Shown piece after piece: positions 33,971 through 55,440 of a DNA stretch of 64,000 nucleotides. Positions within the stretch are counted from its first letter, which is position 1. Every line of letters begins with the position of its first letter. Source of the stretch: Mayamaea pseudoterrestris. Taxonomy: Eukaryota. The stretch spans positions 682,001 through 746,000 of the forward strand of contig BROI01000015.1 of the NCBI GenBank assembly GCA_027923505.1, written 5' to 3'. The translations under genes were made by a program, and so were the position numbers. The notes under the pieces were generated by a model. The model worked only from the letters and a program-made list of their open reading frames with translations. It was not told where the DNA came from and made no database searches.

Positions 33971-34610
33971 GCTGGACGAGTCTCTTCTCTTGCGTCTCTT
34001 ACTCTCTGACTTTGACAAATCTGTCTCTTGCTCTTCAATCGCAAATCAACCAACGACTCAAGTTGTAGCTGCGTTATAGCAGCGTGAAGATGTGAAGGAT
34101 TGGAGCGACAAGATGCGACCGTTTTGCCCTGTCAACAAGCTTCAACTTCGCAGAATGACCTGAACCAATCTACGCCCCGACGAATGTATCCGAGCTTCAA
34201 CGGAAGTTTGTTGTCTGCATGGCGAAAGTCGTTCAACGAATGGCGGCATGCAAATGCTTTCGCGGTCGTGCCAAATCGGATTGGCCATAATTAAAATGTG
34301 AATGCCAGCTGCAGCCGGATTAAGCCTCATGACTCGATTCGCACATTCGCTGTCACACTTGCCGGTACTGTCACAAAAAGCAATGCATTGCTGCTTCACT
34401 GTACCACTTTAGCTCTATGCGAGTACGCTAACTCAAGCCATATCTCAAATCTACAATATGTAAAGCTAGATCTAAATTGTCAGTGACTTTTCTTTGTGCC
34501 TAGCATTGCTAGGTAGAATGCAAGAGAACATTGGAACAAATTTCGGGGACAAAATCTTGTCGATTCTGTGAATATTGCAACCTATAATTGGAAACTTCAG
34601 GTTAATTTAA

Positions 34611-37600
34611 AAGTATCACTTGCTACTTGAGGTGCACCACTAGCAGATCCAACAAGTTGTTGGATCTGCTCAGTCCTGTGGCATACATGGTGATGGATAC
34701 TGAGGTGCAACTGACCAACTTATGGCCCATCATGACAACAAACATGATATGAAAGATATGGGAGGGCTCACCAGGCAAGGCTGGTGATCCCTGCAGCCAA
34801 AATGGGAGCAGGGCTGGCACATTCAACCAGTTGTTGAATGTGCAGAGTCTCAGGGCATAGTGATGGCTTCCACATCCCAAAGAACAAGTCTATGAGTCCC
34901 ATGCACTGTTCAAGTCCATGTTTGTTGTATTACGGGGTCTGCAGGCCATTTTGGAGGTCTCACTTGCCACTTGAGGTGCATCGCTGGCAGATCCAACAAG
35001 TTGTTGAATCTGCTCAGTCTCACCATGGTGTACATGGTGATGGATACTATGGTGCAACTGACCCACTTATGGTCCATCATGACAACAAACATGATATGAA
35101 AGATATTGGAGGGCTCAGCAGGCAATGCTGGTGATCCCTGCAGCCAAAAAGGGAGCAGGGCTGGCACATTCAACCAGTTGTTAAATGTGCGGAATCTTAG
35201 GGCATAGTGATGGCTTCCACACCCCAAAGAACAAGTCTATGAGTCCCATTCACTGTTCCAGTCCAAGTTTGTTGTATTGTGGGTCTGCAGGCCATTTTGG
35301 AAGTCTCACTTGCCACTTGAGGTGCATTGCTGGCAGATCCAACAAGTTGTTGAATCTGCTCAGTCTCACCATGGCGTACATGGTGATGGATACTATGGTG
35401 CAACTGACCCACTTATGGCCTATCATGACAACAAACATGATATGAAAGATATTGGAGGGCTCAGCAGGCAATGCTGGTGATCTCTGCAGCCAAAAAGGGA
35501 GCAGGGCTGGCACATTCACCCAGTTGTTGAATGTGCGGAGTCTCAGGGCATAGTGATGGCTTCCACACCCCAAAGAGCAAGTCAATGAGTCCCATTCACT
35601 GTTCAAGTCCATGTTTGTTGTATTGTGGGTCTGCAGGCCATTTTGGAAGTCTCACTTGCCACTTGAGGTGCATTGCTGGCAGATTTAACAAGTTGTTGAA
35701 TCTGCTCAGTCTCACCATGGCGTACATGGTGATGGATACTATGGTGCAACTGACCCACTTATGGCCCATCATGACAACAAACATGATATGAAAGATATTG
35801 GAGGGCTCAGCAGGCAATGCTGGTGATCCCTGCAGCCAAAAAGGGAGCAGGGCTGGCACATTCAACCAGTTGTTGAATGTGCGGAGTCTCAGGGCATAGT
35901 GATGGCTTCCACACCCCAAAGAACAAGTCTATGAGTCCCATTCACTGTTCCAGTCCATGTTTGTTGTATTGTGGGTCTGCAGGCCATTTTGGAAGACTCA
36001 ATTGCCACTTGAGGTGCATTGCTGGCAGATCCAACAAGTTGTTGAATCTGCTCAGTCTCACCATGGCGTACATGGTGATGGATACTATGGTGCAACTGAC
36101 CCACTTATGGCCCATCATGACAACAAACATGATATGAAAGATATTAGAGGGCTCAGCAGGCAATGCTGATGATCTCTGCAGCCAAAAAGGGGGCAGGGCT
36201 GGCACATTCAAGCAGTTGTTGAATGTGCCGAGTTTCAGGGCATAGTGATGGCTTTCACACCCCAAAGAACATGTCTATGAGTCCCATTCACTGTTCAAGT
36301 CCATGTTTGTTGTATTGTGGGGTCTGCAGGCCATTTTGGAAGTCTCACTTGCCACTTGAGGTGCATCGCTGGCAGATCCAACAAGTTGTTGAATCTGCTC
36401 AGTCTCACCATTGCACAGGTGGCAATAGATACTGAGGTGCAACTGACCCACTTATGGCCCATCATGACAACAAACATGATATGAAAGATATGGGAGGGCT
36501 CAGCAGGCAATGCTGGTGATCCCTGCAGCCAAAAAGGGAGCTGTGCTGGCACATTCAACCAGTTGTTGAATGTGCGGAGTTTCAGGGGCATAGTGATGGC
36601 TTCCACACCTAATTGGACAAGTCTTTGAGTCCCATTCACTGTTCGAGTCCATGTTTGTTGTATTTTGGGGTCTGCAGGCCATTTTGGAAGTCTCACTTGC
36701 CACTTGAGGTGCATTGCTAGCAGATCCAACAAGTTGTTGAATCTGCTCAGTCTCACCATGGCGTACATGGTGATGGATACTATGGTGCAACTGACCCACT
36801 TATGACCCATCATGACAACAAACATGTTATGAAAGATATTGGAGGGCTCAGCAGGCAATGCTGGTGATCCCTGCAGCCAAAAAGGGAGCAGGGCTGGCAC
36901 ATTCAACCAGTTGTTGAATGTGCGGAGTTTTCAGGGCATAGTGATGGCTTCCACGCCCCAATGAACAAGTCTATGAGTCCCATTCACTGTTCCAGTCTAT
37001 GTTTGTTGTATTGTGGGGTCTGCAGGCCATTTTGGAAGTCTCACTTGCCACTTGAGGTGCATCGCTGGCAGATCCAACAAGTTGTTGAATCTGCTCAGTC
37101 TCACCATTGCACAGGTGGCGATAGATACTGAGGTGCAACTGACCCACTTATGGCCCATCATGACAACAAACATGATATGAAAGATATGGGAGGGCTCAGC
37201 AGGCAATGCTGGCGATCCCTGCAGCCAAAAAGGGAGCAGGGCTGGCACATTCAACCAGTTGTTGAATGTGCGGAGTTTCAGGGGCATAGTGATGGCTTCC
37301 ACACCTAAATGGACAAGTCTATGAGTCCTGTTCACTGTTCCAGTCCATGTTTGTTGTGTTGTGGGGTCTGCAGGCCATTTTGGAAGTCTCACTTGCCACT
37401 TGAGGTGCACCACTGGCAGATCCAACAAGTTGTTGAATCTGCTCAGTCTCACCATGGTGTACATGGTGATGGATACTATGGTGCAACTGACCCACTTATG
37501 GTATATCATGACAACAAACATGTTATGAAAGATATTGGAGGGCTCAGCAGGCAATGCTGGTGATCCCTGCAGCCAAATAGGGAGCAGGGCTGGCACATTC

Positions 37601-40600
37601 AACCAGTTGTTAAATGTGCGGAGTTTCAGGGGCATAGTGATGGCTTCCACACCTAAATGGACAAGTCTTTGAGTCCCATTCACTGTTCAAGTCCATGTTT
37701 GTTGTATTGTGGGGTCTGCAGGCCATTTTGGAAGTCTCACTTGCCACTTGAGGTGCATTGCTAGCAGATCCAACAAGTTGTTGAATCTGCTCAGTCTCAC
37801 CATGGCGTACATGGTGATGGATACTATGGTGCAACTGACCCACTTATGGTATATCATGACAACAAACATGTTATGAAAGATATTGGAGGGCTCAGCAGGC
37901 AATGCTGGTGATCCCTGCAGCCAAATAGGGAGCAGGGCTGGCACATTCAACCAGTTGTTGAATGTGCGGAGTTTTCAGGGCATAGTGATGGCTTCCACAC
38001 CCCAAAGAACATGTCTATGAGGCCCATTCACTGTTCCAGTCTATGTTTGTTGTATTGTGGGGTCTGCAGGCCATTTTGGAAGTCTCACTTGCCACTTGAG
38101 GTGCATTGCTAGCAGATCCAACAAGTTGTTGAATCTGCTCAGTCTCACCATTGCACAGGTGGCGATAGATACTGAGGTGCAACTGACCCACTTATGGTAT
38201 ATCATGACAACAAACATGTTATGAAAGATATGGGAGGGCTCAGCAGGCAAGGCTGGTGATCCCTGCAGCCAAAAAGGGAGCTGTGCTGGCACATTCAACC
38301 AGTTGTTGAATGTGCGGAGTTTCAGGGCATAGGATGGCTTCCACACTTAAATGGACAAGTCTATGAGTCCCATTCACTGTTCCAGTCCATGTTTGTTGTA
38401 TTGTGGAGTCTGCAGGCCATTTTGGAAGTCTCACTTGCCACTTGAGGTGCATTGCTAGCAGATCCAACAAGTTGTTGAATCTGCTCAGTCTCACCATGGT
38501 GTACATGGTGATGGATACTATGGTGCAACTGACCCACTTGTGGCCCATCATGACATGATATGAAAGATATTGGGAGGGCTTAGCAGGCAATGCTGATGAT
38601 TCCTGCAGCCAAAAAGGGAGCAGGGCTGGCACATTCAACCAGTTGTTGAATGTGCGGAGTTTCAGGGCATAGTGATGGCTTCCTCACCTAAATGGACAAG
38701 TCTTTGAGTCCCATTCACTGTTCAAGTCCATGTTTGTTGTATTGTGGGGTCTGCAGGCCATTTTGGAAGTCTCACTTGCCACTTGAGGTGCATTGCTAGC
38801 AGATCCAACAAGTTGTTGAATCTGCTCAGTCTCACCATGGCGTACATGGTGATGGATACTATGGTGCAACTGACCCACTTATGGTATATTATGACAACAA
38901 ACATGTTATGAAAGATATTGGAGGGCTCAGCAGGCAATGCTGGTGATCCCTGCAGCCAAATAGGGAGCAGGGCTGGCACATTCAACCAGTTGTTGAATGT
39001 GCGGAGTTTCAGGGGCATAGTGATGGCTTCCATACCTAAATAAACAAGTCTTTGAGTCCCATTCACTGTTCAAGTCCATGTTTGTTGTATTGTGGGGTCT
39101 GCAGGCCATTTTGGAAGTCTCACTTGCCACTTGAGGTGCATTGCTAGCAGATCCAACAAGTTGTTGAATCTGCTCAGTCTCACCATGGTGTACATGGTGA
39201 TGGATACTATGGTGCAACTGACCCACTTATGGCCCATCATGACAACAAACATGATATGAAAGATATTGGAGGGCTCAGCAGGCAATGCTGGTGATCCCTG
39301 CAGCCAAAAAGGGAGCAGGGCTGGCACATTCAACCAGTTGTTGAATGTGCGGAGTTTTCAGGGCATAGTGATGGCTTCCACACCCCAAAGAACAAGTCTA
39401 TGAGTCCCATTCACTGTTCCAGTCCATGTCTGTTGTATTGTGGGGTCTGCAGGCCATTTTGGAAGTCTCACTTGTCACTTGTGGTGCATTGCTAGCAGAT
39501 CCAACAAGTTGTTGAATCTGCTCAGTCTCACCATTGCACAGGTGACGATAGATACTGAGGTGCAACTGACCCACTTATGGCCCATCATGACAACAAACAT
39601 GTTATGAAAGATATTGGAGGGCTCAGCAGGCAATGCTGGTGATCCCTGCAGCCAAAAAGGGAGCTGTGCTGGCACATTCAACCAGTTGTTGTTTGTGCGG
39701 AGTTTCAGGGCATAGGATGGCTTCCACACGTAAATGGACAAGTCTATGAGTCCCATTCACTGTTCCAGTCCATGTTTGCTGTATTGTGGGGTCTGCAGGC
39801 CATTTTGGAAGTCTCACTTGCCACTTGAGGTGCATTGCTAGCAGATCCAACAAGTTGTTGAATCTGCTCAGTCTCACCAGCGACAGGTGATACTGGAGTG
39901 CAACTGACCAACTTATGGCCCATCATGACAACAAACATGATTATAAAAAATTTGTGAGGGCTCAGCAGGCAATGCTGATGATCCCTGCAGCCACAAAGGG
40001 AGCAGGGCTGGCACATTCAACCAGTTGTTGAATGTGCTGAGTCTCAGGGCATAGTGATGGCTTCCACACCAAAAAAAAACAAGTCTATGAGTCCCATGCA
40101 CTGTTAAAGTCCATGTTTATTGTATTATGGGGTCTGGAGGCCATTTTGGAAGTCTCACTTGCCACTTGAGGTGCACCGCTGGCAGATCCAACAAGTTGTA
40201 GGGTTGGCTCAGTCTCACCATTGCATACATGGTGATGGATACTGAGGTGCAACTGACCATCTTATGGCCCATCATGTCAACAAACATGATATGAAAGATA
40301 TTGGGAGGGCTCAGCAGGCAATGCTGATGATCCCTGCAGCCACAAAGGGAGCAGGGCTGGCACATTCAACCAGTTGTTGAATGTGCGGAGTGTCAGGGCA
40401 TAGTGATGGCTTCCACGCCCCAATGGACAAGTCTATGAGTCCCTTTCACTGTTACAGTCCATGTGCGTTGTATTATGGGTCTGCAGGCCATTTTGGAAGT
40501 CTCACTTGCCACTTGAGGTGCACTGCTGGCAGATCCAACAAGTTGTAGGGTCTGCTCAGTCTCACCATGGCTTTCAAGGTGATGGATACTGAGGTGCAAC

Positions 40601-42425
40601 TGACCATCTTATGGCCCGTCATGACAACAAATATGATATGAAAGATATTGGAGGGCTCAGCAGGCAATGCTGATGATCCCTGTAGCCACAAAGGGAGCAG
40701 GGCTGGCACATTCAACTAGTTGTTGAATGTGCGGAGTCTCAGGGCATAGTGATGGCCACTACACCCAAAAGAACAAGTCTATGAGTCCCATTCTCTGTTA
40801 CAGTCCATATTTGTTGTATTATGGGGTTTGCAGGCCATTTTGGAAGTCTCACTTGCCACTTGAGGTGCACTGCAGGCAGATCCAACAAGTCGTAGGGTCG
40901 GCTCAGTCTCACCATGGCTTTCAAGGTGATGGATACTGAGGTGCAACTGACCAACTTATGGCCTATCATGACAACAAACATGATATGAATGATATTGGAG
41001 GGCTCAGCAGGCAATGCTGATGATCCCTGCAGCCACAAAGGGAGCATGACTGGCACATTCAACCAGTTGTTGAATGTGCGGATTCTCAGGGCATAGTGAT
41101 GGCTTCCACACCCCAATGGACAAGTCTTTGAGTCCCAATCACTGTTAAAGTTTATGTTTATTGTATTATGGGGTCTGGAGACCATTTTGGAAGTCTCACT
41201 TGCCACTTGAGGTGCACTGCTGGCAGATCCAACAAGTTGTAGGATCTGCTCAGTCTCACCATAGCATACATGGTGAAGGATACTGAGGTGCAACTGACCA
41301 TTTCATGGCCCATCATGACAAAAAACATGATATGAAAGATATTGGAGGGCTCAGCAGGCAATGCTGATGATCCCTGCAGCCACAAAGGGAGCATGGCTGG
41401 CACATTCAACCAGTTGTTGATTGTGCGGAGTCTCAGGGCATAGTGATGGCTTCCACACCTACAAGAACAAGTCTATGAGTCACATTCACTGTTACAGTCC
41501 ATGTTTGTTGTATTATGGGGTCTGCAGGCCATTTTGGAAGTCTCACTTGAGGTGCACTGCTGGCAGATCCAACAAGTTGTAGGGCTGGCTGAGTCTCACC
41601 ATGGCATACACGGTGATGGATGCTGAGGTGCAATTGACCAACTTATGGCCCATCATGACAATAAACCTATTTGAAATATATTGGTGGGCTCAGCGAGCAA
41701 TGCTGATGATCCCTGCAGCCACAAAGGGAGCAGGGCTGGCACATTCAACCAGTTGTTGAATTTGCAGAGTCTCAGGGCATAGTGATGGCTTCCACACCCA
41801 ATTGGTCAAGTCTATGAGTCCCATTCACTGTTCAAATTTATGCTTGTTGTATTATGGGGTCTGCAGGCCATTTTGGAAGTCTCACTTGCCACTTGAGGTG
41901 CACTGCTGGTAGATCCAATAAAGTATTGGATCTTCTCAGTCTCACCATGGCATACATGGTGATGGATACTGAGGGGCAACCGACCAACTATGGCCCATCA
42001 TGACAACAAACATGATATGAAAGATATTGGAGGGCTCAGCTGGCAATGCTGATGATCCCTGCAGCGAAAAGTGGAGCAGGCTGGCACATTCAACCAGTTG
42101 TTGAATGTGCGGAGTCTCAGGGCATAGTAATGGCTTCCACACCCAATTGGAAAAGTCTTTGAGTCCCATTCACTGTTCAAGTTAAGGTTTGTTGAATCAT
42201 GGGGTCTGGAGGCCATTTTTAAAGTCTCACTTGCCACTTGAGGTGCACCGCTAGCAATTGTTGTATCTGCTCAGTCTCACCGTGGCATACATGGTGAAGG
42301 ATACTGAGGTGACCAATGATTGAATTGGGGCAATCAGCCGGGTGCTGATGTGCCCTGCAGCCAAAGGAGAGGCTGGCCATTCCGCAGTGGTTGCATGTGC
42401 GGAGTCTCAGGGCATGTGATGCTTC
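34611..42425. repeat. Tandem array of ~22.5 copies of a ~346-348 bp unit, each a diverged dimer of ~169+177 bp with several palindromes
   Basis: The anchor GGGCATAGTGATGGCTTCCAC (or close variants) recurs about 23 times, from ~34853, 35200, 35546, 35892 to ~42120 and 42410. Copies become more degenerate toward 42.4 kb. Confidence 0.97.
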
Positions 42426-43186
42426 ACTAAAGGAAATCACCCGGAAACTCCGGGTGCTGACCAGTCATCGATTCACTGTCTGCAGGTTGTTGATCAGGGG
42501 TGAACAGGTGGGACAAACAAACAAACAAGCTGGCTAGACAACAGGGTTGGCAAGCAAGCAAGCAAGAGGAATGAGAGGCAGATTGGCCAGGTTGTCTGCT
42601 CATTGATGTCTCCATGATGTCGTCCCGAACCATCGATGATGTGTGTATCACTCAGAGTGTACTCATAAGGTATCTTATGAGTGTCCCCAAGGCAGTCTCC
42701 TCTAAACATCCGCCCTGAGCCGAACAATCAGCACGGGTGCTGATTGCCCTCCGTCGCCCAGCTGTTTCTTTCCGCGGTGCATGGCTGTATCCAGTGCAGC
42801 TGCCCCTCAGGAGGCAGCGATGTCCATGTGGTTGGCAAGAAATCACCCGGAAATCCGGGTCCCTGAGCAACCACGTCATCGATGATGACTGGCAGCGAGT
42901 CCTGTCTTGACAGGAGTCGCCTCAACCCACACGACAACAGCTAGCTGGATGGACGTCCCGCCACACAACAACAAAGGCCGTGTGGTGAGAACCACGAAAA
43001 GAAACAAGGAAGAAAGAAAGAAGAACGAGAAGAGAAGGAAACCCAGTGGCTGAGATCCTCCCGCTCCCCACGTGATGGGGGAGTAGCTAAAGGCGAGGAG
43101 CGCACAAACCCGTCGCGCACACGTGCGCGCGAAAGATCCGGATGCAAATCTTTAGCTATGACCCGTAATTCTATAACTGAAATGTC

Positions 43187-44677
43187 TTATAATAAAATGG
43201 CGCCTTCAATGGCCTTTAAGGTCAGGCGTCCAACCTCGTGGGTACTTTCCCGTAGGTAGTGTTGTACCGACGGCGGAGACCAGCGTAATCGAAAGGCAAT
43301 CTCCTCAATGGAGAGGCCCGCATTTTGCAAGGCAACTGCAGCTGTGACTCGATTTGAATGAGCTACAATGCTGTTGATATTCTGGCGCAGGAAGTGTTTC
43401 GGGTCAGGGTATGCTCCAACAACCACTTGCCGCATGACTTTAATGATATCGCGCGACTGCAAGTACTCGTAAGCGCCAGTGGCATCTTTGCGAAAGACCC
43501 CAAGCGGCTCACGTATTGCTTTCTTGTGTAGTTGTTGGGCGCGGGAGAGGATGGAAAGACTCGCGGCAATAGGGCAAATGAAAGGATGGCCCGACCGACG
43601 ATACCGACGAATAGTGAAGTTGTTTTGGCTCTTATCGTATCGAAAACGTAGGCGCAACTCGTATGCCTGGCTGCCATCTTTCAGGAGTGCGCTATGGCTA
43701 ATGAGCACGTTGTGTTTAGAGTAGAAAGTAAAATCCAAGTCGACAAAGGCAAGTGGTTGGTGCGCCCATTCGCCCGCATCTTGGGTTGGCGGTACCTTGC
43801 TGAAGCAACCGCGTTTCGCTGTAGTCTGTGCGTACTCGTTTGCCCTGGAACCGGTAAAGGCCCCGAGGCAAGTCCAGTCAAAGACTGCTGCCTCCAAATC
43901 AAGCGCATGACGAACGTCTGTGTGGATGAGGCGCTTGAGTTTGGAGTAGAGGAACGCAAACATACTGTGGGTGTATGGCTCGCGCTTTTCCCGCGCCTGT
44001 TGCCATTTGCGGCGACTGGACAAGATATCATCTAAAACGGGATGAAGGCCACTGCCACGAGGGTCATTGATGGAGAAGCGCCGATTGAGTGCAGTTTCAA
44101 GTAGTGCATGCGCCGCTCTGAGGTATCCACTGAGCGTCTTCACCTTGAGGGGCTGTGGTTCATCAGTGCTCTGTCGGCGCAGCGCCCGTTTGTCCACTGC
44201 CAAGGATGTCTCGCCAGAGGAGACAGCATATAGATAGCTGGCTAGGACCGGGATTTCTTGCCCCGGTGCGATTGACGCGAAAAGACTGGTCGTTGAATCC
44301 TGCTTTAAGACTCCATTTTCCAAAATGCGAGGCGCGCTGGTCAAACGTGCGATCGTTGTGGGACCGAATGTCTCCTCGTTGGCGGTGTTGTTGATCACTG
44401 ACGAGATAACTGTAAGCAGCTTGGACTCGACCAGGAAGACCTTGCAATTGGCTAACACCTGCGTTTCCGGCGAGATAACGGATGCCCCCGCGAGAGTCGA
44501 CGCCGTGAAGCGAGACAGTCTGTCGGCCTCCACATTGTCCTTGCCTGAATGTGTGTTTGCCTGGATGCGGAGAGATAATGTACTGTAAGTGGCAATGTGC
44601 ATGAAAGAAATTGTGCCAGGCGGCGGAAGATGAGATCCTTGAGGAAACGCCTTTGGCTGAAACGTTCTAGCATGCAC
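43187..44677 (-). CDS. Tyrosine recombinase (DIRS-type) preceded by an RNase H C-terminal remnant
   Basis: Full catalytic set: R (FTGSRANEY), K (RYDKS), HxxR (AHSNR), W (RLRW), Y (QHYLR), plus CPIAA. The upstream HSGKDNVEADRLSR matches the retroelement RNase H ending. Confidence 0.88.
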   Translation of the reverse strand: MHARTFQPKAFPQGSHLPPPGTISFMHIATYSTLSLRIQANTHSGKDNVEADRLSRFTASTLAGASVISPETQVLANCKVFLVESKLLTVISSVINNTANEETFGPTTIARLTSAPRILENGVLKQDSTTSLFASIAPGQEIPVLASYLYAVSSGETSLAVDKRALRRQSTDEPQPLKVKTLSGYLRAAHALLETALNRRFSINDPRGSGLHPVLDDILSSRRKWQQAREKREPYTHSMFAFLYSKLKRLIHTDVRHALDLEAAVFDWTCLGAFTGSRANEYAQTTAKRGCFSKVPPTQDAGEWAHQPLAFVDLDFTFYSKHNVLISHSALLKDGSQAYELRLRFRYDKSQNNFTIRRYRRSGHPFICPIAASLSILSRAQQLHKKAIREPLGVFRKDATGAYEYLQSRDIIKVMRQVVVGAYPDPKHFLRQNINSIVAHSNRVTAAVALQNAGLSIEEIAFRLRWSPPSVQHYLRESTHEVGRLTLKAIEGAILL

Positions 44678-44928
44678 AGTCGTGCGGCGCTTGCAGGGTT
44701 TGTTTCGATGTCTTGCTCATCCTTCTTTATTTGCTCGATGGTGGTTTCGTAGCGCGCTCGAGAAACAACATGCTCAGGCGCTTGATTGCGGTGCTCCCAT
44801 GCTTGAAGAAAAGATTGATAGCCTTCGTAGGTGAATGAGTCTGATCCGTAACTTTGACTGCTTGGGTATGCATCTGAATCGTAAGTTGCGTCGTCTGAAT
44901 TGGTTTCTTCATCGCCAGGATTGCTCAT
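44452..44928 (-). pseudogene. In-frame continuation of the gag ORF past one TGA, then frameshifted relative to the RNase H/YR frame
   Basis: ATG at 44928 lies 30 nt past the 44959-44961 stop in the same frame; the ORF overlaps the YR ORF in a different frame. Confidence 0.5.
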
Positions 44929-44958
44929 GATGATTTCGACTCGCTCTGTATCCCAGAC

Positions 44959-47508
44959 TCAAAGACCAGTGTATTGGTAGTAGCGGTCTCGCGTTGAGTC
45001 AATTGCTTCTTGATGCGTAAAGGCGTGTGGCATGGCTATGTGCTCAAGAAAGAATTCTTGTAGATCTGCAAACATCACTTTTACGGCGTCTGATAGCTCG
45101 TACAGTGGAGGATTGATGAACAGGACGCTTTGCAAAACGTGGAATGGCGGTAGATCAGTCGAGTTGGCTTGTGACGGAATGTTGTTTGGAATTCTTGGAG
45201 CAAAGGTTGGATACAAGTGCTCGACTTCTTTTAGCTCGTCTGCTGTAAGGAAGTCTTTGGGTAGCCAGTCTCCTCGCCATTGCGCAAAGCTTGTCGCTAC
45301 AAGTTCTTCTACACTTTCTTCTTCTTTCAATTCAATTGGAGGACTTGTTGTTGGAGTTGAATCCTTGTCGGCGCTGCAAGTTGTGACGTTGTCGGTGCGC
45401 TCATGTGTGTCGCATTCGTTGGCGTTTGTGGTTGTTGGCTCAAGATTGGTGGCTTCAGTTGTGTCGCTGCTCGTTGTGACGTTATTGGTGCTTTGCGTAG
45501 CGTCGTAGCCGTGGTAGGAATCGTTAAGATTGTTTGCTTGCTCTTCAATTGATGAGTGCGCTTGTTGCTCTGATTTACTTGGCTCGTCTTGTTCGTGAAA
45601 TGGCAGACCCTTCCCGTCTTCTTGCTTCGTTTGCTCAAGTGTTTCAATGTTTTGAATTAAAGTGCTGAAGTGTTTCCGTTCTTGCTCGGTTGGAGTCTTG
45701 TTGTTGACAAATTCTTCTTCAAAGTCGCTTTCTTCTTCATCACTTGTGCTTGGGTCGCCGCATATGGATGCCCAACTGCGTCCATTGAGATTTGACGATG
45801 GAAGATTTGGCTTTGGCTTTGGTGACTCGCTCGTTGTGGACGACTTTGTTAAAGGCACCAATTCGACGGCTTGCTTCTTGTTGGTGGAGCTTGACGTTGT
45901 TCTTGCGCGTTTTGTTCGAGTTGTTGGTGGTGCTGGAGGCTGCTCGATTGATGAATCGTCTTCCGATGAATAGTCTTTAATCTGATGTGGCTGTAGACCG
46001 CGCCAATTGGTTTGTGGATATAAAGGCGACGGTGTTGGAGCTGCAGGAGTGCGAGTAGGGAGTGCTGGATAAGTTTCATCAACTAAGTCGGCATGTATGA
46101 AGGCAAATTCGCTCCTTGAGTTTGTAGAAGGATAACGGCGGCTTAAAGAGGAACGTTGCGAAGAGGAGCGATGCGATCGCTGAGTCAACTGAAGGGCTTC
46201 GTGTACTGCTGCAAGTCCTTGTTCAAGTAGTAATGGTGCTTGACGAGGCACTTGCTCGCGCATGATGGTTCGCGGGTGAGGCTCTTGACGATGGTTTTGA
46301 TGCTCAAGTTGACGCTGCGGTTGCTCTTGATGATCTCGACGATGATAATCATTGTCTCTTGGTTGGTCTCTTGTGCACTCGTTGTTGCGATTCTGGCGAT
46401 AACGACGGTCTTCTTGTTGATCATCTTGAGGAAGACGACGATCTGGCTGTCGATTTGAATTGCGAGGACGCTCTCTTGGTCGTTCTAAACCCCGCTCTTG
46501 TTGCTCTCGTGCTTCTTCATCTTCCAATTGACGACGAGCTTCAATTGACAGGCGAGTGTTCCATCCGCGAGGCCGACGATGGGCGTTTTCGACTCGTTCA
46601 AAGCAGTCGGCGCTTCGATGATACGGTTGATGGCAAAGGTAGCATTTGAATGATGGTGGATTTCGCGTGTTGTTATAGTTGGTTTGCGGGCGTTCATTGC
46701 GAGTTGGCGGCGCTTGATGCTGACGAGTGTTTTGTTGGCGTGAAGTTTCTTGTTGCGGCGGTTCTGGTTGTGCTGCATATAGAACAATCTCGTTGACTCC
46801 TTGTATTAAAGCTTCTTCATCTTCTGCTGCGTAAATCGTTTGGTAGATAGTCGACACGACGCCTTCCATTTCGGTCTTGGTCAGGGCGCGTTGCTTGGTC
46901 TTTTGCTCTTGCGCTAGAGCGAGGCAGTATTGAGGCGGCAGCTTGTTCATGAGTGTAGCCATCAGGTCTTCTGCAAGAAGCGTTTGGTTGAACTTGATGG
47001 CTTGCGATTGCATGAGATCAATGAGGTCTTGAGGATTTGCTGTTGGTCGTTCGAGCTTGAGATTTTGAATGCTTCGTCGGTAAAGTGTTGGCGCCATGAA
47101 CTTGTCTGGAGAAAATTTGATTTCCAATGCGTTGATAACTTTCCAAGCTTCGCCTCCTGGATACTCTGTTGATTCTGCTCCAACTAGATGGTCGTTCAGC
47201 TCGGGGAATGGCGACAATGCGATGGAAAGCATTTGCATGAGCGTTTCATTCTGCTTGCGTTCCGCTTGTTTGTTTCGAATGATTTGGATTTCATCTGCCG
47301 TTGCGTTAGCTGCAGGATCAGTAATGACTTCATTCTGAGTAGCTGGTAAGTGCTCGGGTCGACTGCCTCTTATAGGACGGCGGCAGCCTGCAATTCTTGC
47401 ATGATTCTTGAACTGGTTGAACCATGATGGAAAGGCTTCGATGGTGTTGGTTATCTTTGGCGTTTTGTAGAGTGCATTCATAGTGATGTCTTCTTGTTGG
47501 TCGGTCAT
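44959..47508 (-). CDS. Gag-like protein with a CCHC zinc knuckle and a long low-complexity tail
   Basis: CYLCHQPYHRSADC knuckle. The N-terminal FPSWFNQFKNHA...YPGGEAWKVINALEIKFSP resembles Copia-type gag. Confidence 0.75.
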   Translation of the reverse strand: MTDQQEDITMNALYKTPKITNTIEAFPSWFNQFKNHARIAGCRRPIRGSRPEHLPATQNEVITDPAANATADEIQIIRNKQAERKQNETLMQMLSIALSPFPELNDHLVGAESTEYPGGEAWKVINALEIKFSPDKFMAPTLYRRSIQNLKLERPTANPQDLIDLMQSQAIKFNQTLLAEDLMATLMNKLPPQYCLALAQEQKTKQRALTKTEMEGVVSTIYQTIYAAEDEEALIQGVNEIVLYAAQPEPPQQETSRQQNTRQHQAPPTRNERPQTNYNNTRNPPSFKCYLCHQPYHRSADCFERVENAHRRPRGWNTRLSIEARRQLEDEEAREQQERGLERPRERPRNSNRQPDRRLPQDDQQEDRRYRQNRNNECTRDQPRDNDYHRRDHQEQPQRQLEHQNHRQEPHPRTIMREQVPRQAPLLLEQGLAAVHEALQLTQRSHRSSSQRSSLSRRYPSTNSRSEFAFIHADLVDETYPALPTRTPAAPTPSPLYPQTNWRGLQPHQIKDYSSEDDSSIEQPPAPPTTRTKRARTTSSSTNKKQAVELVPLTKSSTTSESPKPKPNLPSSNLNGRSWASICGDPSTSDEEESDFEEEFVNNKTPTEQERKHFSTLIQNIETLEQTKQEDGKGLPFHEQDEPSKSEQQAHSSIEEQANNLNDSYHGYDATQSTNNVTTSSDTTEATNLEPTTTNANECDTHERTDNVTTCSADKDSTPTTSPPIELKEEESVEELVATSFAQWRGDWLPKDFLTADELKEVEHLYPTFAPRIPNNIPSQANSTDLPPFHVLQSVLFINPPLYELSDAVKVMFADLQEFFLEHIAMPHAFTHQEAIDSTRDRYYQYTGL

Positions 47509-47516
47509 GGTTGCGA

Positions 47517-49520
47517 TTAGAATGAGTAGTAAAAGTTTTGGCTATTGGTCGGACGTTGATAGCTAACGTTGTTGTCGGCAAATGGAGATTGACGGTTTGG
47601 GGTAGCTAAACGTTGCTGACGTGGCCAATTGAGTTGCTGATGTGACGGAGTTTGAAAACGTGAACGAGCGTGGAACTGCTGAGCGTGTTGATCGCGACGA
47701 TGGACACGTTGTTGATTTGTCACTTGTCGATTTCGTTGAGCTTGTAAGTGCAGCTGTCGTTGTTGTTGATTAAGAAGATGATTTAAACGAGTTACTTGAG
47801 CTTGAAGACTGTTTATATCGCGTGTATGATGAGTTGTAGTGTTGCGCGTGTCGTTGATGCGAGGCTGGACTCGAAGGGTTGGATTGGAGGTTCGGTTTTG
47901 CTGTCGGGTTGGCGTAACGATTCGATTCGCTTGTTGCTGTCTTAAACGTTGCTGGTAAGGACGATTGCTGTTCGTTTCGTTGCGTCGTTGATTGCGTCTT
48001 TGACTAACAGTGATTCGATTGCGTTGAAGATTGATCGAAGCTTGTTGCGTTGTTGATGCGCGCTCTTGACTTGCTTGTCGCTGTCTGTTTCGTTGTTGAA
48101 GAAGTGCTTGACGACGGTCTGCGACGCTTTGAACTGCTGCGATGCGAGATGCTTCTTGGTAAGTGCTTGAAACGTTCTGTGAGCGAAGAGTTTGTTGCGA
48201 TGGTCTCGTGTCTTGGCGATGCGCTTGTCTAACTGGCGCTCGATTTGCTTCTTGTTGGCGAATTGAATTGATTGATCGGCAAGTATGCGTCGTGCTTGTT
48301 GGCAATGTCTCTAATTGCTCGTTGACTGGCGATGAGTTGCTGCTTGGCGAAGGTACGTGTGTTTGCGTATTGGCGATGCACACAGAACAAGCGCACGTCG
48401 TCTCTGTGTTTATATCTGGTACTTCAGAAAGTCTTTGTAAGTCTTGACGTCTGTTTTCTTCGTCCTTTTGAAGCAGGAAACGGGTCTTCTTGAGGAAGTA
48501 AAGAGTTACTGGATGCGATAGGCCTTTTGCTTCGAATTCGTCTCGTTCGTTGCGCAAAGTGTCTTCTAGTAGAAGAATCTCCTTCTCTTCGGGCGTGAAA
48601 GGATTGTTCGGTCGGCAAAGATCAAGGCTCTTGTAAAAGTCTGCTCGCTTTTTGTCAAGGAAGATTAATGACTTTGGAGAAAAGATGAAGGCTTTGAGAA
48701 AGGGTACGTTACTGTCGATGTAACTTGTTTCGGCGTCTGATTGTGCGGTTGACTTGGCAACTTTTGCTAATCCTTCTTCTTTAAATTCTTCCGCAATGTG
48801 ACTGTAAAACACTTCGTTGTTGGCTAGGTCTTTAAACTGATTGAAGCGCTTCTCACAAGCTTGTTCTGGGTCGATTGGCTTTGATGAAGGCGGCGGTAGA
48901 ATACCTCGAAAGATCCAGGCGAAACGCTTGTCTTCTTCGTCCCAAGTCCAAGGGGTTGGAGGAGAGACGCGCGGGTCGTAACGATACCAGCCGTATCGAA
49001 CGTTCGGGTGGTTGTAGACTGCTTTCTCTTCGTCAGTGGCGGGTCGTCCAGTTAGATGCCAGTCTTCGGGGTTGTTTGGTGAAAGACGACGAAGGCTGTC
49101 GCGCGGGTTGGACTCGATTGGAAGGCGCTCTCGTTCTTGATTGCTTGCAATTTGGTCGGCGGCGGTAAGTCGGATTACTGGGCGGCCTTCTGGAGCGACC
49201 GATTGGAGACTTGAAGGGTTGAACTCGTGTAAAGTAATGTTGATGAAGAGGATGACGACTTGTAGAAGGCGTCGTGAAGAATTAAAGACTTGGCGGCTTG
49301 TGTTGAAGCGGCGAAGGAAACTGTAAAGAAGGCGCGTGACTGGTGGAGTGAGAGGCGACTTGGAAAGAGTGCTCGGCAGACTAGGTAAAGTAGTTCTGCT
49401 CAACTGATGGAGACTTGAAATCTGCTCGACGACGTTGGCCTTGATCAAACGCTTGATCCGACTCGAGGTAAACTGAAAGATAAAGGCAAAAGGGTCGCTT
49501 GTAGGCTTGCTCTTGCTCAC
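47517..49520 (-). CDS. ORF1 of the YR element; Q/R/N-rich C-terminal half; function unknown
   Basis: 667 open codons (GTG start in the ORF track) ending 8 nt before the gag ATG; same strand as gag. Confidence 0.55.
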   Translation of the reverse strand: MSKSKPTSDPFAFIFQFTSSRIKRLIKANVVEQISSLHQLSRTTLPSLPSTLSKSPLTPPVTRLLYSFLRRFNTSRQVFNSSRRLLQVVILFINITLHEFNPSSLQSVAPEGRPVIRLTAADQIASNQERERLPIESNPRDSLRRLSPNNPEDWHLTGRPATDEEKAVYNHPNVRYGWYRYDPRVSPPTPWTWDEEDKRFAWIFRGILPPPSSKPIDPEQACEKRFNQFKDLANNEVFYSHIAEEFKEEGLAKVAKSTAQSDAETSYIDSNVPFLKAFIFSPKSLIFLDKKRADFYKSLDLCRPNNPFTPEEKEILLLEDTLRNERDEFEAKGLSHPVTLYFLKKTRFLLQKDEENRRQDLQRLSEVPDINTETTCACSVCIANTQTHVPSPSSNSSPVNEQLETLPTSTTHTCRSINSIRQQEANRAPVRQAHRQDTRPSQQTLRSQNVSSTYQEASRIAAVQSVADRRQALLQQRNRQRQASQERASTTQQASINLQRNRITVSQRRNQRRNETNSNRPYQQRLRQQQANRIVTPTRQQNRTSNPTLRVQPRINDTRNTTTHHTRDINSLQAQVTRLNHLLNQQQRQLHLQAQRNRQVTNQQRVHRRDQHAQQFHARSRFQTPSHQQLNWPRQQRLATPNRQSPFADNNVSYQRPTNSQNFYYSF

Positions 49521-50201: not shown

Positions 50202-50390
50202 GTTTGCACTTAACCACGTAAGCTTGCAGACTGACGCAAGCTCTTCTTGCAATTCAAGTTGAATCGCACCTTGTTGCTTTCTTTGGACCGTTTTGGCTTC
50301 TTGCGGGTTACCTCAGTCCACTCATCGTTAGCTAACTCATCCTCATCCTTAAGTCGGTCCGAGCACCGTGAAGACTCGCTATTCACAACA
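50202..50390 (-). repeat. Truncated 3' LTR (189 bp)
   Basis: Matches 55624-55812 except 2 adjacent substitutions seen (TTTGGACC vs TTTTAACC); similarity ends abruptly at 50202. Confidence 0.9.
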
Positions 50391-53300
50391 CCCTCCTTGC
50401 TCGTATCGACGACCTTTCTGAAACCATTATAGATGAACGCAGCATGCCTCGTATGCGTCTCCTCCTTGCAATTCTTTGACGTTATATCAGCAGGATTCTC
50501 TTCCGACTTGATGTACTCAAACTTGATCCGTTTCTCCGCCGTCAACTCCGTCAGGAACCGATGCCTAATGTCAATGTGCTTCGTCCTTTGTCCCACTTGA
50601 TTATTATCTGCCAAGAATATCGCACCAGTGTTATCCGCATGGATGATAGCTGGACTTGGAGGATCCTTGCCGATGATTTCCTTTAGCAAGTTCGACTCGA
50701 AGATGATTTCTTTTGCTTCTTCCGCTTGACCAACGTACTCGGCTTCAGTACTTGAAAGGGCAACGCTTCCTTGCTTCTTCGACTGCCAACTAACCAAACA
50801 ATTACCGCCGACCGTTGTCAAGTTGCTATTGATGCTGCGCCGATCGTTCTTATCGGACGCCCAATCAGTGTCGGTGTATCCTTCCGGGCGCAAGTTCTCT
50901 GGCGTCCTCAACTTCAATGGCTTAGCGTTATGCTTTAGATAGCCCATCAAGCGTGCCAACACCTTCCAATGCTCCTTTCCAGGGTTCGCCAAGTGCGACG
51001 ACAAGTCTCTAACCGCGTTGCTGCAATCTGGATAGACCTTCCTCACAGCGAAGAGCACTTTGCCGATATGCTTTCGATACGCAGCCACGTTGATGATGCT
51101 TCCTTCGTTCTTCATCAAGACGCTCCCTCCTGCTGCTGGAGTTGGATAGAACTTGAGCTCCCTTCTGATATCTTTCTCGAACGCCGCTATCATCTCATCA
51201 GTATACTGCTTCATTGAGCACTCGAAGTACACGCCGTGCTCGTCCGATTTCAACTCGTAGTCCACGCCAAGGAATCGTTCCAACGGACCCAAGTCCTTGA
51301 TCTCAACGTGCTGCTTGATCCAAGCTTTCAACTTGTCTGTCTCGCTTGTGTAGCCCGAGTTGATAACGTCGTCAACGTAAACCGTCACGATCAAGACCAG
51401 TTCGCCGTCGACATGCTTTAGAAAGACGCACGGATCCGCCTTCGACTGCACCAAGTTCATGTGCTTCGCATCCTTGAGCAGCTTGATAAAGTACTGCTGC
51501 CACAGCCTCGACGCGTTCACTTGTCCATACTGGGTCATCGACAGACGAATGCAGTGTGTCGTGCGATTGAATGTCCTTCCTTGCGACTCGCAATAGTCTT
51601 CGTAAAGGACTGGCGCCTCAATGTACAGCTCCGTCTCCGCTGGCGCTTGCAAGAATGCCGCGCACACATCGAACACTTCCGCCACTTTCCACATCTCCGT
51701 TTGCTTTGCATTGACTCGCTTGCCTGCGTCCAACTGCTTCTTCTTGTATAGCGACACACCAAGATGAGTGCGGATTGATTGATCGACTGGCGTCGACGCA
51801 AAACTCTCTTCAAAATCAATTCCTGGCACCATTTCGTATCCAAGCACTGTATTCCTTACGCGCGCTTCAATCTCCTTTGTGATCGGATTCATCTTGTACG
51901 TAAAGACGTTCTTCGTTCCAAGTGTCTTTTGATTAGGAGGCCGAGGGACTTCAGTCCACGCTTTGCCATCAAACTTGCCATATTCAATGAACGTCGGCTG
52001 CTCCCAAGTGGCTCGATTCTGCTCATTGTACGCCTCCCTCCAGTTCTTTGGGACAGGCGGTGGAGATTTGCCTGAAACCACGGCAAAGACTAGATCTGCA
52101 AGGTTAACTGGATCCTCATGGTCACTTGTGATGGATCCTCCCTCCTCGATTGCAATCACGGGCGCGCCAGCCGGGCCCTCCTCGCCGCTAACGTCGCCAA
52201 CTCCGATAGGTGCGCCACCATGTGCAAGTTGTTCTCCAGCTTCAATCTCCTCGGTTAAATCAACAACTGCTCCACGATCAATTACCTCGTTGAGTACGCG
52301 ACCTTGCATCAACTGCTGTCCATGGTCAACTTCGATATCAGCAGCTGAATCCCTCCTCAAGGGAGCACCACGAGAACGAGTCATGATCGGCGAGCGTATC
52401 GGCACATTGCGCGGCGGGCGGGGGCCAGTGCGCGCCGGCGCAGTCGTGCCATCATCCTCCACTTTTCCATCCGGAGGCATTCCACCATGACCAAAGCTCC
52501 CCAACGATTCATCGTCAGATTCTTCAAAGAAACCGTCTTCATTGCCATCATCGTCGTCTCCTGTAGCCTTTTTAACAAAAGGATAGACCCAACGAACATC
52601 TTTTGTGGCAATCACTTTACGTGTGGATCGCTTGTAAACCAAGCACGTTCCTGCAGCGTGGCGTGGAGCGTGTCCCACATAAAAGCATTCCTCCGCCTTG
52701 GGGACAAAATGGCGTTGATTCACCATGGGGATCTTGTAATAACCACGCGCTCCAAAGGGAAGCAGATTCTTTGCTCGCACAGGCACAGTCTCTTTGAAAG
52801 GGGTGTAAGCGTCGGTATATCCAAGGCGCGGAATCAAATTGTCCTTCACCGTCGCCAGCTCGAGGCAATTTCCCCACAGCGCCATCGTTTCAGCGTGGGT
52901 CAACTGATTCTCCTCAGCCATCATGCTTGCGTGTCCCTTGTTGCGGATTGTTGGAAACGCTCTCTCCACATGACCGTTCTGCATTGGCGTGTGAGGCGCC
53001 GTCTGCTCCATCTTGATTCCTCGAACCAAGCACGGCTCGTCAAGCAGCTCCCATTCCGGCGCGTTGTCGCAATGAAGAAAACGACAACGGAAGTCCTTCG
53101 CCTTTAACCAATCAATCAACGCAACAATCTGCTCGGTAAACTTGTTCTTCTGAGCTCCGAAATAGCTCCACTTGCGACGAGTTGCATCATCGACGATCAA
53201 GCACCAGTAACGATTCTTGCCAAGAGACTCTTTATACGGACTGCTCAAGTCTAGAAACAAACGCTCTCCAGGATGCTTTGCCTCTATCTCCGTCTTCTTC

Positions 53301-53458
53301 TTCACGTTCTGCGACTTAGCTTTCGCCTTCTCGCATGCAACGCAAAAATCCAACGTGCCAACAAGCTTCCAACCAAATTGTTTCGCCATGAGCTTCAAGT
53401 GCGACATACCAACGTGTCCCAAGCGACAGTGCGCCTCGTTGATATCAATTCGACGCAT
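50210..53458 (-). CDS. Copia pol: GAG-pre-integrase, integrase, RT, RNase H
   Basis: HCRLGH...CVAC; DDE core (LDLS, CDNAPE, QNGHVER); RT (FDVCAAFL, YGQVNASRLW, VYVDD); RH (YTDTDWA, SSTEAEY, ADNTGA, TKHIDIR). Confidence 0.93.
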   Translation of the reverse strand: MRRIDINEAHCRLGHVGMSHLKLMAKQFGWKLVGTLDFCVACEKAKAKSQNVKKKTEIEAKHPGERLFLDLSSPYKESLGKNRYWCLIVDDATRRKWSYFGAQKNKFTEQIVALIDWLKAKDFRCRFLHCDNAPEWELLDEPCLVRGIKMEQTAPHTPMQNGHVERAFPTIRNKGHASMMAEENQLTHAETMALWGNCLELATVKDNLIPRLGYTDAYTPFKETVPVRAKNLLPFGARGYYKIPMVNQRHFVPKAEECFYVGHAPRHAAGTCLVYKRSTRKVIATKDVRWVYPFVKKATGDDDDGNEDGFFEESDDESLGSFGHGGMPPDGKVEDDGTTAPARTGPRPPRNVPIRSPIMTRSRGAPLRRDSAADIEVDHGQQLMQGRVLNEVIDRGAVVDLTEEIEAGEQLAHGGAPIGVGDVSGEEGPAGAPVIAIEEGGSITSDHEDPVNLADLVFAVVSGKSPPPVPKNWREAYNEQNRATWEQPTFIEYGKFDGKAWTEVPRPPNQKTLGTKNVFTYKMNPITKEIEARVRNTVLGYEMVPGIDFEESFASTPVDQSIRTHLGVSLYKKKQLDAGKRVNAKQTEMWKVAEVFDVCAAFLQAPAETELYIEAPVLYEDYCESQGRTFNRTTHCIRLSMTQYGQVNASRLWQQYFIKLLKDAKHMNLVQSKADPCVFLKHVDGELVLIVTVYVDDVINSGYTSETDKLKAWIKQHVEIKDLGPLERFLGVDYELKSDEHGVYFECSMKQYTDEMIAAFEKDIRRELKFYPTPAAGGSVLMKNEGSIINVAAYRKHIGKVLFAVRKVYPDCSNAVRDLSSHLANPGKEHWKVLARLMGYLKHNAKPLKLRTPENLRPEGYTDTDWASDKNDRRSINSNLTTVGGNCLVSWQSKKQGSVALSSTEAEYVGQAEEAKEIIFESNLLKEIIGKDPPSPAIIHADNTGAIFLADNNQVGQRTKHIDIRHRFLTELTAEKRIKFEYIKSEENPADITSKNCKEETHTRHAAFIYNGFRKVVDTSKEGVVNSESSRCSDRLKDEDELANDEWTEVTRKKPKRSKESNKVRFNLNCKKSLRQSASLRG

Positions 53459-54363
53459 GTGCGGCGCCGAAGAATCATCTTTCCCGCTATCGAGCGCTTC
53501 ACCAGCATCTTCTCCAAGAAAAGAGATAACGAGCGCTTCGTCTGCTCGTCTCGCGATGCTTCCAAGTAAAAGAGTTTGCCGTCGGGGTCACATTCAAAGT
53601 TGATTCCACGCTCCCTTCCCTTCGGTGTTGTCCAGGCAACTCGAATTTGCTCCTTGCTAACCGACTTGACGAAGCATCCTTTATCCAAGAGCTTGCTCAA
53701 ACTGATAATATTGCGAGGAAACTGCGCCATGATCGGTACCTCCGTCAAGACGAAACGAGTACCATCCTTCGTCACAAGCGGCAAGTCTCCCATCTGAGTT
53801 GCCACGCAGCGAGTTCCATCGGCAATGATCAAGGTACGGTTGCAAGCTCTCAAGTTCACCATCGCATCAGCGCAATGGACTCCGTGCGTTCCGCTGCCCG
53901 AGTCCAGCATGTACTTGTTGTCGTAAGCGTCGTCGCGATCCGAGACTGCAAAAACCAAGTGCTTCTCCTCTTTGTCGACCTGCGATCCATTGGTAAGTGA
54001 ATTGTTGTTATCGATGCTCTCGTTCGGGCGCAACAAGTCAGGCATCTCACTCGAATCATCGCTGTCATATCCACTCAGATTGCGAGGATTCAAACTCGGA
54101 ATTGATGATCCGCTTTCAGTGCTTTCGTCGTCCCAATTCGTGTCGCACGGGACCGAATCGCCATCTTCGCTATCATTGAAGAAAGACCAGTCATCATCGT
54201 CTTCCTCAATCTCCATGGTCGAGCGCTGGTTGCAAATCCATTCAAGCGCGCCCATTGGCTCTCCATACGGGGCTGACGTCAGGTGCACCTCCGTCGGCAA
54301 CTCACACGACTCCTCTGACGTCACTGGCACCTCCATTGACTGCTCCTTCATGACGGCCATCAA
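53395..54363 (-). pseudogene. Copia protease region, in frame with gag after a TAA and frameshifted relative to IN-RT-RH
   Basis: Aspartic protease motif YMLDSGSGTH, plus IADG and NIISLSKL. Frame switch near 53550. Confidence 0.8.
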
Positions 54364-54387
54364 CCAAGGATCCTCGTCCTCCGAGTC

Positions 54388-55389
54388 TTACGCATTAGAG
54401 CGACTGCCTTGACTGCTGTTGCTCTTCTTCTTCGGGCACTTGCTAGCGTAATGACCCTTCTCACCGCAAACGAAACAGGTAACTGTCTTCTTCTTGTCGC
54501 CGTTTCCTTTGCCGCCGCCGCCATTGTTCTTCGCGTTGCCGCCCTTCTCACCCTTGTCATCCTTCTTCTTGTCAGGACAATCGCGCTTGACATGACCAAA
54601 CTTGTTACACTTGAAGCAGCGTTTCAATGGTGGCTTGCCAGGCCAAGTAGCTAACGCCAAGTCGTCGCCTTTCTTGCCTCCCTTGCCGCCTGGGTTTCCG
54701 CTCACTTTCCACTCCTCGACAATCAACTCCTTAAAGTCCTTCAAGGTAAACGTTTCCTTCATAACGTTGCCACGATGAGCCGAGCAGAAAGGCGCCCAAG
54801 CTGTCGAGCGCTGGAGACACTGGAAGATGGTCGACTTCTTCTGGTTTTCATCGTTCATGTACTTGGGATCGACGTCACCCAAGCGAGTGTTGGCAAGCTC
54901 AAGATCCGCCAACCAATCATGCGCCATTGTATAATTCCCCGGGACACAGTCAGAGTACTCTTTCTGGAGCTGCGGGAGATCTGATATCATGTTGCCAGCC
55001 TTGAACTCTTCCTTCAGGAGCTCCCACATGGCAAACGCGGTAGGCTGCGCGCTAACTCGACGCATCAGGGCATGATTCTCAATGCTATTGACGATAGCAG
55101 CTTGAGCTTTGGCGTTCATATCATGGAGACGCAACTCTTGGGTAGTCGCTTCGCGAGTGGTTTTCGTCCCAGTGCTTCTCCCGTTCGAATCCTTCTCCTC
55201 CTCCTCAACTTCCATCATGAGGAACTCCTCAGGACTCAACAACTTGTGCTTTGCCAACTTAGACAAGTCCTTGTTCACCGCACCGAGCGCTCCCAACCCT
55301 TCAATCAACGCGAGGATCTGCGGCTTCCAGTCCTTCCGCGTCTCCTTCAACCCGTTCCACGGGACTTTGCGTAGGTTCTTGGCTTCCAT
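54388..55389 (-). CDS. Copia gag with two CCHC knuckles
   Basis: CFKCNKFGHVKRDC and CFVCGEKGHYASKC; TAFAMWELLKEEF is a Copia-gag-like motif. The start could be slightly upstream (MPST, 55401). Confidence 0.88.
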   Translation of the reverse strand: MEAKNLRKVPWNGLKETRKDWKPQILALIEGLGALGAVNKDLSKLAKHKLLSPEEFLMMEVEEEEKDSNGRSTGTKTTREATTQELRLHDMNAKAQAAIVNSIENHALMRRVSAQPTAFAMWELLKEEFKAGNMISDLPQLQKEYSDCVPGNYTMAHDWLADLELANTRLGDVDPKYMNDENQKKSTIFQCLQRSTAWAPFCSAHRGNVMKETFTLKDFKELIVEEWKVSGNPGGKGGKKGDDLALATWPGKPPLKRCFKCNKFGHVKRDCPDKKKDDKGEKGGNAKNNGGGGKGNGDKKKTVTCFVCGEKGHYASKCPKKKSNSSQGSRSNA

Positions 55390-55440
55390 GGTGCTTGGCA
55401 TCTTGTCTTGAATCCTTTCTAAGTCGAACGTTTTAAAACG

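Follow-up and report, generated by a model that had tools for sequence, protein, structure and literature searches.

The DNA analysed here (the window, a stretch of 64,000 nucleotides at C15:682001-746000, from a 30.6-Mb diatom assembly of 41 contigs) contains a tandem array of a dispersed, non-coding satellite, whose palindromes were probably perfected in founder units, amplified with them, and are now decaying. In present copies the symmetry is being lost through changes to single arms, and there is no sign of a folded RNA; they are thus best read as ordinary silenced satellite DNA, its palindrome being mildly conserved at most.

The array has a period of 348 bp (22.3 copies, 91% matches in tandem-repeat statistics) and spans positions 34611-42425 of the window. 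An initial annotation, made at 34643..36131, covered only a small part of it. Each unit is a dimer, consisting of a half A of 177 bp and a half B of 169-171 bp. The halves are homologous, with 65% identity overall (z 7.8) and 58% identity when the dyad is left out (81/139 positions). The unit therefore appears to have arisen long ago as a dimer of a ~174-bp monomer, each copy of which carries a single palindrome. Features of the array are, in window coordinates:

34611..42425, plus strand: the whole array of 348-bp dimeric units, about 22.3-22.5 in tandem, the last one degenerate; CpG observed/expected 0.12
34642..34670, no strand: dyad A, perfect, 14-1-14 here; family majority form and sole perfect A of the window array
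34817..34843, no strand: dyad B, 11-5-11 form, as throughout the window array; 13-1-13 in other arrays
34987..35163, plus strand: example of half-unit A, 177 bp
34987..35013, no strand: dyad A with a derived one-arm G>A, found in 14/22 window units; the new base is that of the sister dyad
35164..35332, plus strand: example of half-unit B, 169-171 bp; 58% identical to A without the dyad
35367..35385, no strand: minor dyad CACCATG-N5-CATGGTG, polymorphic, without covariation
35828..35852, no strand: 6-bp stem CCCTGC...GCAGGG, polymorphic, without covariation
35956..35967, plus strand: arm 1 of a long-range inverted repeat of 12 bp; few parts of the unit vary more
36120..36131, plus strand: arm 2 of the same repeat

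The satellite is a genome-wide family of at least 489 units (489 matches to an 18-mer of the unit with one mismatch allowed; a control gave 0). Units were sampled from 43 ten-kb stretches around matches among those listed, yielding 273, and later 314, near-full units from 14 contigs; the 314-unit set is a sample of the family rather than all of its copies. Arrays of 0.5-14 kb occur on at least 14 contigs, several per contig and between ordinary genes; contigs C1 and C2, for example, have at least six and five distinct arrays. Their ends fall at scattered positions of the unit. Subfamily variants are common to the units within one array, the pattern of concerted evolution, and the head-to-tail, non-coding monomers exceed 100 bp and reach high copy number at many loci, as is typical of satellites. 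In DNA runs X1 and X2, depth over the first unit exceeds that of the flank by about three orders of magnitude; depth here does not equal copy number, yet it suggests that larger arrays may be collapsed. An allelic-looking copy of the window's array lies at C32:48099-54404, with the same left flank and ~18 units instead of 22. The right flank of that copy (54404 onward) does not recur within 30 kb of C15 beyond window position 42425. Since C32 shares the left flank and the array but not the right flank, the array is a break point between contigs, through either a misjoin or ectopic exchange.

The arrays have 48% GC and are strongly depleted in CpG, with an observed/expected ratio of 0.12 in the window array and 0.00-0.33 in other neighbouring monomers, against 1.06 in genes. 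Methylation of repeats is known in diatoms, as far as the accessible text of PMC9998398 goes, and the depletion, an indirect sign, fits it; the satellite is probably methylated. A protein-coding repeat was considered and rejected. A minus-strand frame is open across single window units, but in the family consensus each of the six frames is interrupted by stops (2-8 per frame), unit spacings are divisible by 3 in 81/244 cases, and variants lack codon phase. Exact searches with the dyad among metagenome contigs and viral contigs gave no match.

In most fetched regions, the arrays adjoin tandem repeats of other families, whose monomers measure 162-188 bp. These surroundings form mosaic islands, where satellites of 160-190 bp, at least seven of them and mutually unrelated, adjoin directly, with some junctions recurring across contigs (for example C12:806687-814148, C11:1011556-1027983, C13:443951-453878 and C1:2141000-2154686). 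Shared ancestry of all neighbouring satellites was rejected, as the 348-bp halves align significantly to no other family. Three of the island satellites (348, 352 and 371 bp) are ancient dimers, with 65-70% similarity between their halves. A 162-bp repeat at C1:2151000-2152193 is open for at least 398 codons in one frame per strand, with a 54-aa unit; its Pfam matches are weak and scattered, and the openness may reflect coding or chance.

The two palindromes of the family show a paired difference. Family dyad A reads GCAGATCCAACAA-G-TTGTTGGATCTGC, and family dyad B reads GCACATTCAACCA-T/A-TGGTTGAATGTGC in ~60% of units, with 248 exact copies of the 13-1-13 form of B genome-wide. Both are 13-1-13 palindromes, and they differ by three mirrored swaps among 13 pairs, with zero unpaired differences. 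The chance of six changes forming three complementary pairs is ~5e-5, for boundaries picked after inspection of the data. The initial annotation had described the sister dyads (A GCAG...CTGC, B GCAC...GTGC) as differing by a paired swap. They are indeed homologous, the sequences it quoted at 34643-34669, 35956-35967 and 36120-36131 are present there exactly, and the paired difference is real and even stronger than first described. It had also seen a second paired change in the leftmost copy of A. This is actually the majority form of the family, perfect in 137/314 units, and it is the window's common form that has changed: it leaves a G-T on the minus strand, as was noted at the time, and a C-A on the plus strand. 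This GAAT form of A, carried by 14/22 window units and by 30/314 family units, is a derived one-arm break.

Within the window, little of the symmetry is left intact. Dyad A is perfect in 1/22 units and dyad B, over 13 bp, in 0/22; the inner pair of B is broken in every unit, giving the 11-5-11 form in 15/22. Across 24 arrays (292 units), we counted 328 one-arm changes and 3 mirrored ones, which indicates that symmetry is decaying and not under repair. The earlier statement that symmetry is maintained thus holds for the founders of A and B and fails inside the arrays, where one-arm decay prevails. Contrary to the initial annotation, none of the lesser elements is present in each unit. CACCATG-N5-CATGGTG occurs in only 11/22 window and 61/314 family units, CCCTGC...GCAGGG in 12/22 and 160/314, and both arms of the 12-bp inverted repeat in 9/22 and 24/314. 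An inverted repeat of at least 12 bp also arises in 24/300 shuffles of the unit, and the long-range repeat is near chance.

Palindromes in a short tandem unit could alternatively belong to a retrozyme-like or otherwise structured RNA monomer that is transcribed, processed and re-inserted. The unit length and the short dispersed tandem arrays do resemble non-LTR retrozymes as presented in the accessible part of PMC7229834, and a single unit is somewhat more stable when folded than its shuffled versions (z -2.2 and -2.7). With the dyads excised, the same unit yields z -1.3/-0.6, and the consensus -1.6/-0.9, so the folding excess sits in the two dyads alone. Covariation is absent on both strands. 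Among 273 units, mirrored changes numbered 3 against 1.6 expected under independence in A, and 0 against 1.1 in B; the other stems gave 9 against 10.7 and 3 against 2.2, and the 12-bp repeat 19 against 27 expected. Wobble-compatible changes show no strand bias (plus versus minus, 63 and 62 in A, 40 and 38 in B). In an RNAalifold analysis of 55 units from many arrays, covariation terms were -1.16 (plus) and -0.21 (minus) kcal/mol, 3/45 (plus) and 1/33 (minus) of the pairs had ever changed on both sides, and the consensus fold retained neither dyad A nor the 12-bp repeat. A one-nucleotide centre, together with Watson-Crick-only symmetry lacking any wobble preference, fits DNA and not RNA.

Searches for known RNA motifs agree. 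Retrozymes are defined by a hammerhead in each monomer and by abundant self-paired circles (PMC7229834, in its accessible part). The hammerhead core CTGAnGA...GAAA is absent from both strands of the consensus, as the initial annotation had correctly observed; the plus strand does have one CTGATGA heptamer with a 6-bp stem after it, but the GAAA partner is missing. Rfam identified only a tRNA in the whole window, and for 34600-35400 one chance hairpin match (E 1.2), with none at the gathering threshold or at E<=1. Array ends at arbitrary unit positions also sit poorly with insertion of a processed monomer. Among the four sequencing runs covered, X7 lacks three intron-like segments of the ATPase gene nearby and therefore looks like RNA. 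Few of its contigs cover the first unit, at a depth of 1-2, one of them extending into the flank of another array; such contigs give no RNA level, strand or circles, and are weighed on neither side. With neither covariation nor a family match from RNAalifold and Rfam, no wobble bias and no hammerhead, the proposal of a structured RNA or ssDNA is not supported; its retrozyme-like RNA form is largely refuted by the comparative tests, and we regard an RNA monomer as extremely improbable.

The founder reading accounts for these patterns as follows. A drifted arm would have been copied onto its partner by a polymerase template switch within the inverted repeat, a process that homogenises arms and inverts spacers in repeats of such arm length (PMC8604942, accessible part). 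As a switch perfects all mismatches together, one or two founder events would suffice for the three mirrored swaps. Unequal exchange and conversion may then have multiplied the founders to hundreds of units in many arrays. In the amplified units, symmetry is now decaying through one-arm changes, with no part played by RNA structure. Mirrored multi-site changes, as expected under template switching, are found as the three swaps between A and B and as one in a second, 169-bp family described below. Complementary centre bases are also present as subgroups in each dyad, in line with template switching: among 314 units, the centre of B is T in 149, A in 35, G in 125 and C in 0, and that of A is G in 298, A in 7, C in 6 and T in 2. 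Their counts nonetheless give little sign of ongoing arm copying. Of 11 parsimony changes at the centre of A, 2 yield the complementary base (background 0.15), and for B the 18 A/T exchanges at this position have counterparts in other polymorphic columns. Given that present mirrored events are very rare, the occurrence of perfected founders in all three cases, A, B and the 169-bp satellite, asks for some pro-palindrome bias. Sister-half conversion focused on the dyad was also examined and set aside: the sister base exceeds 8% at 5/22 near versus 10/108 far positions, which is suggestive only.

One observation goes beyond copying and decay. Private variants of the 348-bp family are scarcer in the arms (161/15087) than elsewhere (1390/85253), a ratio of 0.65x (MWU p 2.6e-4). 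The effect is modest, as the arms rank 6/347 among rotations and 40/347 without homopolymer columns, and some non-palindromic window of the unit is equally conserved. Copying between arms would either remove a change or double it, leaving mean divergence unchanged. Unbiased copying cannot lower divergence, and the lower variation of the arms is thus not explained by neutral copying. Mild DNA-level constraint on the dyad, or a locally lower mutation rate, is a live possibility, and one or the other would have to be added to the founder reading.

A neighbouring satellite of 169 bp provides a second case. It gives 7203 exact matches of a 20-mer, corresponding to ~1.2 Mb or ~4% of the assembly (example loci C7:317220-323046 and C1:638440-641329), and shows no significant alignment to halves A or B. 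Its dyad, TGGTGACAA-G-TTGTCACCA, has the same core as A, and a mirrored swap at one pair occurs in 12/539 units. In 484 units, partly drawn from 40 loci chosen for centre variants, the arms show 0.52x variation and are the least variable window of the unit (rank 0/168). The centre is C in 35 copies genome-wide, A in 31 and T in 11, and other G columns of the family change to A five times as often as to C. Centre changes to the complement looked enriched (22/54 hand-counted clusters), but many C copies belong to an older subfamily; in the young subfamily, a hand count gave ~9/40 centre changes to the complement (p 0.10). Five other neighbouring satellite families have no comparable dyad.

These data bear on a possible, though considerably less probable, alternative in which the dyad itself has a function at the DNA level: a cruciform or hairpin, or a putative dimeric-protein site of the kind that the initial annotation proposed, would favour amplification of, or chromatin assembly on, the units that carry it. 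Template switches would then supply symmetric variants, and selection or drive would retain them. Arms that vary less in two unrelated families, the shared core ACAA-G-TTGT with its own mirrored swap in the 169-bp palindrome, a 169-bp centre that is seldom A or T and is the symmetry-equivalent C in 35 copies, and a perfect A hairpin of -13.6 kcal/mol as DNA are all consistent with such a role. Against it, one-arm breaks have been freely amplified (14/22 window units), the form of B with a broken inner pair makes up 125/314 units, and the right arm of A shows multi-base decay in several arrays. Non-palindromic windows as conserved as the arms, array ends not enriched at dyads, and the five families lacking a dyad weigh in the same direction. 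Stronger still would be the claim that arm-N-arm with core ACAA-S-TTGT is a candidate selected cis-element, reached independently by two unrelated nucleosome-length families filling several percent of the genome, and that it drives amplification or, at numerous positions on each chromosome, nucleates specialised chromatin of a centromere-like or silencing type. We consider this unlikely. If true, such many-site, dyad-seeded chromatin would be an organisation that we did not find described in the parts of the diatom papers covered here.

The ends of the arrays were informative about several readings. Among 60 distinct ends, 13 lie inside dyads against 9.3 expected (p 0.13), and the dyad as a recombinase site or break site was rejected for this lack of enrichment. 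At two junctions, C2:464397 and C2:1880321, dyad A of the 348-bp satellite is joined directly to the 169-bp dyad; ends overall are not dyad-enriched. The arrays could also be the central repeats of non-autonomous Helentrons (HINE type) that carry them through the genome. Oyster HINEs carry short dispersed arrays of 140-180-bp monomers, sometimes with two families consecutively, according to the accessible part of PMC7492417, and here too different families adjoin directly at many loci, with some of the junctions recurring across contigs. Shared flanking modules (subTIR, IR, 3' hairpin) were sought, and none is common to the 60 ends; the left flank at 34150-34620 is found only in the window and in the allelic-looking copy. 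Carriage by Helentrons therefore seems very unlikely.

A further suggestion is that the arrays are repeat-based centromeres or kinetochore-seeding units of the non-B-DNA model, possibly many per chromosome. Monomers of 170-178 bp with a single strong dyad would suit this, dyad enrichment is described in centromeric satellites in the accessible part of PMC5889037, and the high depth of the DNA runs, which is not copy number, may mean that larger arrays are collapsed. The arrays are nevertheless short (0.5-14 kb), stand among ordinary genes, and number at least six on C1 and five on C2, so that several separate arrays per contig are seen where a monocentric chromosome would have one major array. 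Characterised diatom centromeres are small, repeat-free and below 33% GC, as far as the accessible text of 10.1101/096016 shows, whereas the 348-bp arrays have 48% GC. We regard a centromeric role as improbable, and return to founder perfection, amplification and decay as the preferred history.

The remainder of the window records other repeat activity. A tyrosine-recombinase retroelement at 42507-47541 on the minus strand, which we take to be DIRS/Ngaro-like, has a gag-like frame (44959-47541) and a recombinase-like frame (43187-44716) with an RNase H-like tail; its reverse transcriptase is apparently deleted. Pfam assigned the recombinase frame to no family. About a dozen relatives occur in the genome, and in several of them an upstream frame of close to 1000 aa is seen. 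The terminal repeat of the element lies 80 bp from the window array, and the same element end abuts two other 348-bp arrays, at C7:312235-312473 and C1:2360583-2360822. Its presence at three arrays suggests a possible preference for satellite islands. The satellite was rejected as a part of this element, copies of whose right flank and recombinase lie mostly away from arrays. Further along is a Copia element (50202-55812, minus strand) with 189-bp LTRs that are 98.9% identical, and after it a 5.4-kb tandem duplication (55813-59058 / 61248-64468, 98%). Degenerate 100-130-bp repeats at 56321-56823 and 61756-62258, part of that duplication, lie in an open minus-strand frame of 239 aa.

In the titles and abstract openings of those papers on diatom satellites and centromeres that were listed, a set in which subscription papers are thinly covered, no such family is described. 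Dispersed satellites with internal palindromes are known as a class, and the 348-bp family is a new instance. What is added is a family-wide test against RNA, the finding that the symmetry of the window array is decaying, and the argument that copying alone leaves the conservation of the arms unexplained. Most likely, the family is a clear case from nature of satellite palindromes that were perfected, then amplified, and are now in decay. Should the dyads vary less because they have a function, the hundreds of one-arm mutants already present, together with the independent 169-bp family, would serve as test material, and could show whether dyads aid the spread of satellites or recruit centromeric or silencing proteins.

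Several known systems share parts of this organisation; the likenesses and differences given here are limited to the accessible portions of the cited papers. Non-LTR retrozymes (PMC7229834) are likewise tandem repeats of 150-450 bp dispersed as short arrays, whereas the 348-bp satellite lacks the hammerhead, conserved fold, covariation and animal host. The central repeats of HINEs (PMC7492417) also form short dispersed arrays, occasionally of two families consecutively, unlike the present arrays in that no shared flanking modules were found for the latter. Dyad-rich centromeric satellites (PMC5889037) resemble the family in their nucleosome-length monomer and hairpin- or cruciform-capable dyad. 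Their dyads, however, are below 10 bp and sit in large arrays, while ours have 13-bp arms in many short intergenic arrays, and any centromere role is putative.

The clam satellite phBglII400 (PMC5139131) has an internally duplicated monomer with palindromes, abrupt junctions, and short dispersed arrays beside other satellites and transposons, much as seen here. Its junctions cluster at its 10-12-bp palindromes, 13/16 of them at the longer one, unlike those of the 348-bp satellite, whose ends show no enrichment at its dyads of 27 bp (13/60, p 0.13). Template-switched inverted repeats (PMC8604942) are cases from single-copy yeast genes, whereas in the 348-bp satellite present-day mirrored events are rare (3 versus 328) and variation is lower in the arms than around them, a contrast that template switching does not predict. 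The two nevertheless have in common perfect arms of more than 9 bp around a short spacer, several mirrored changes fixed together, and complementary variants at the centre.
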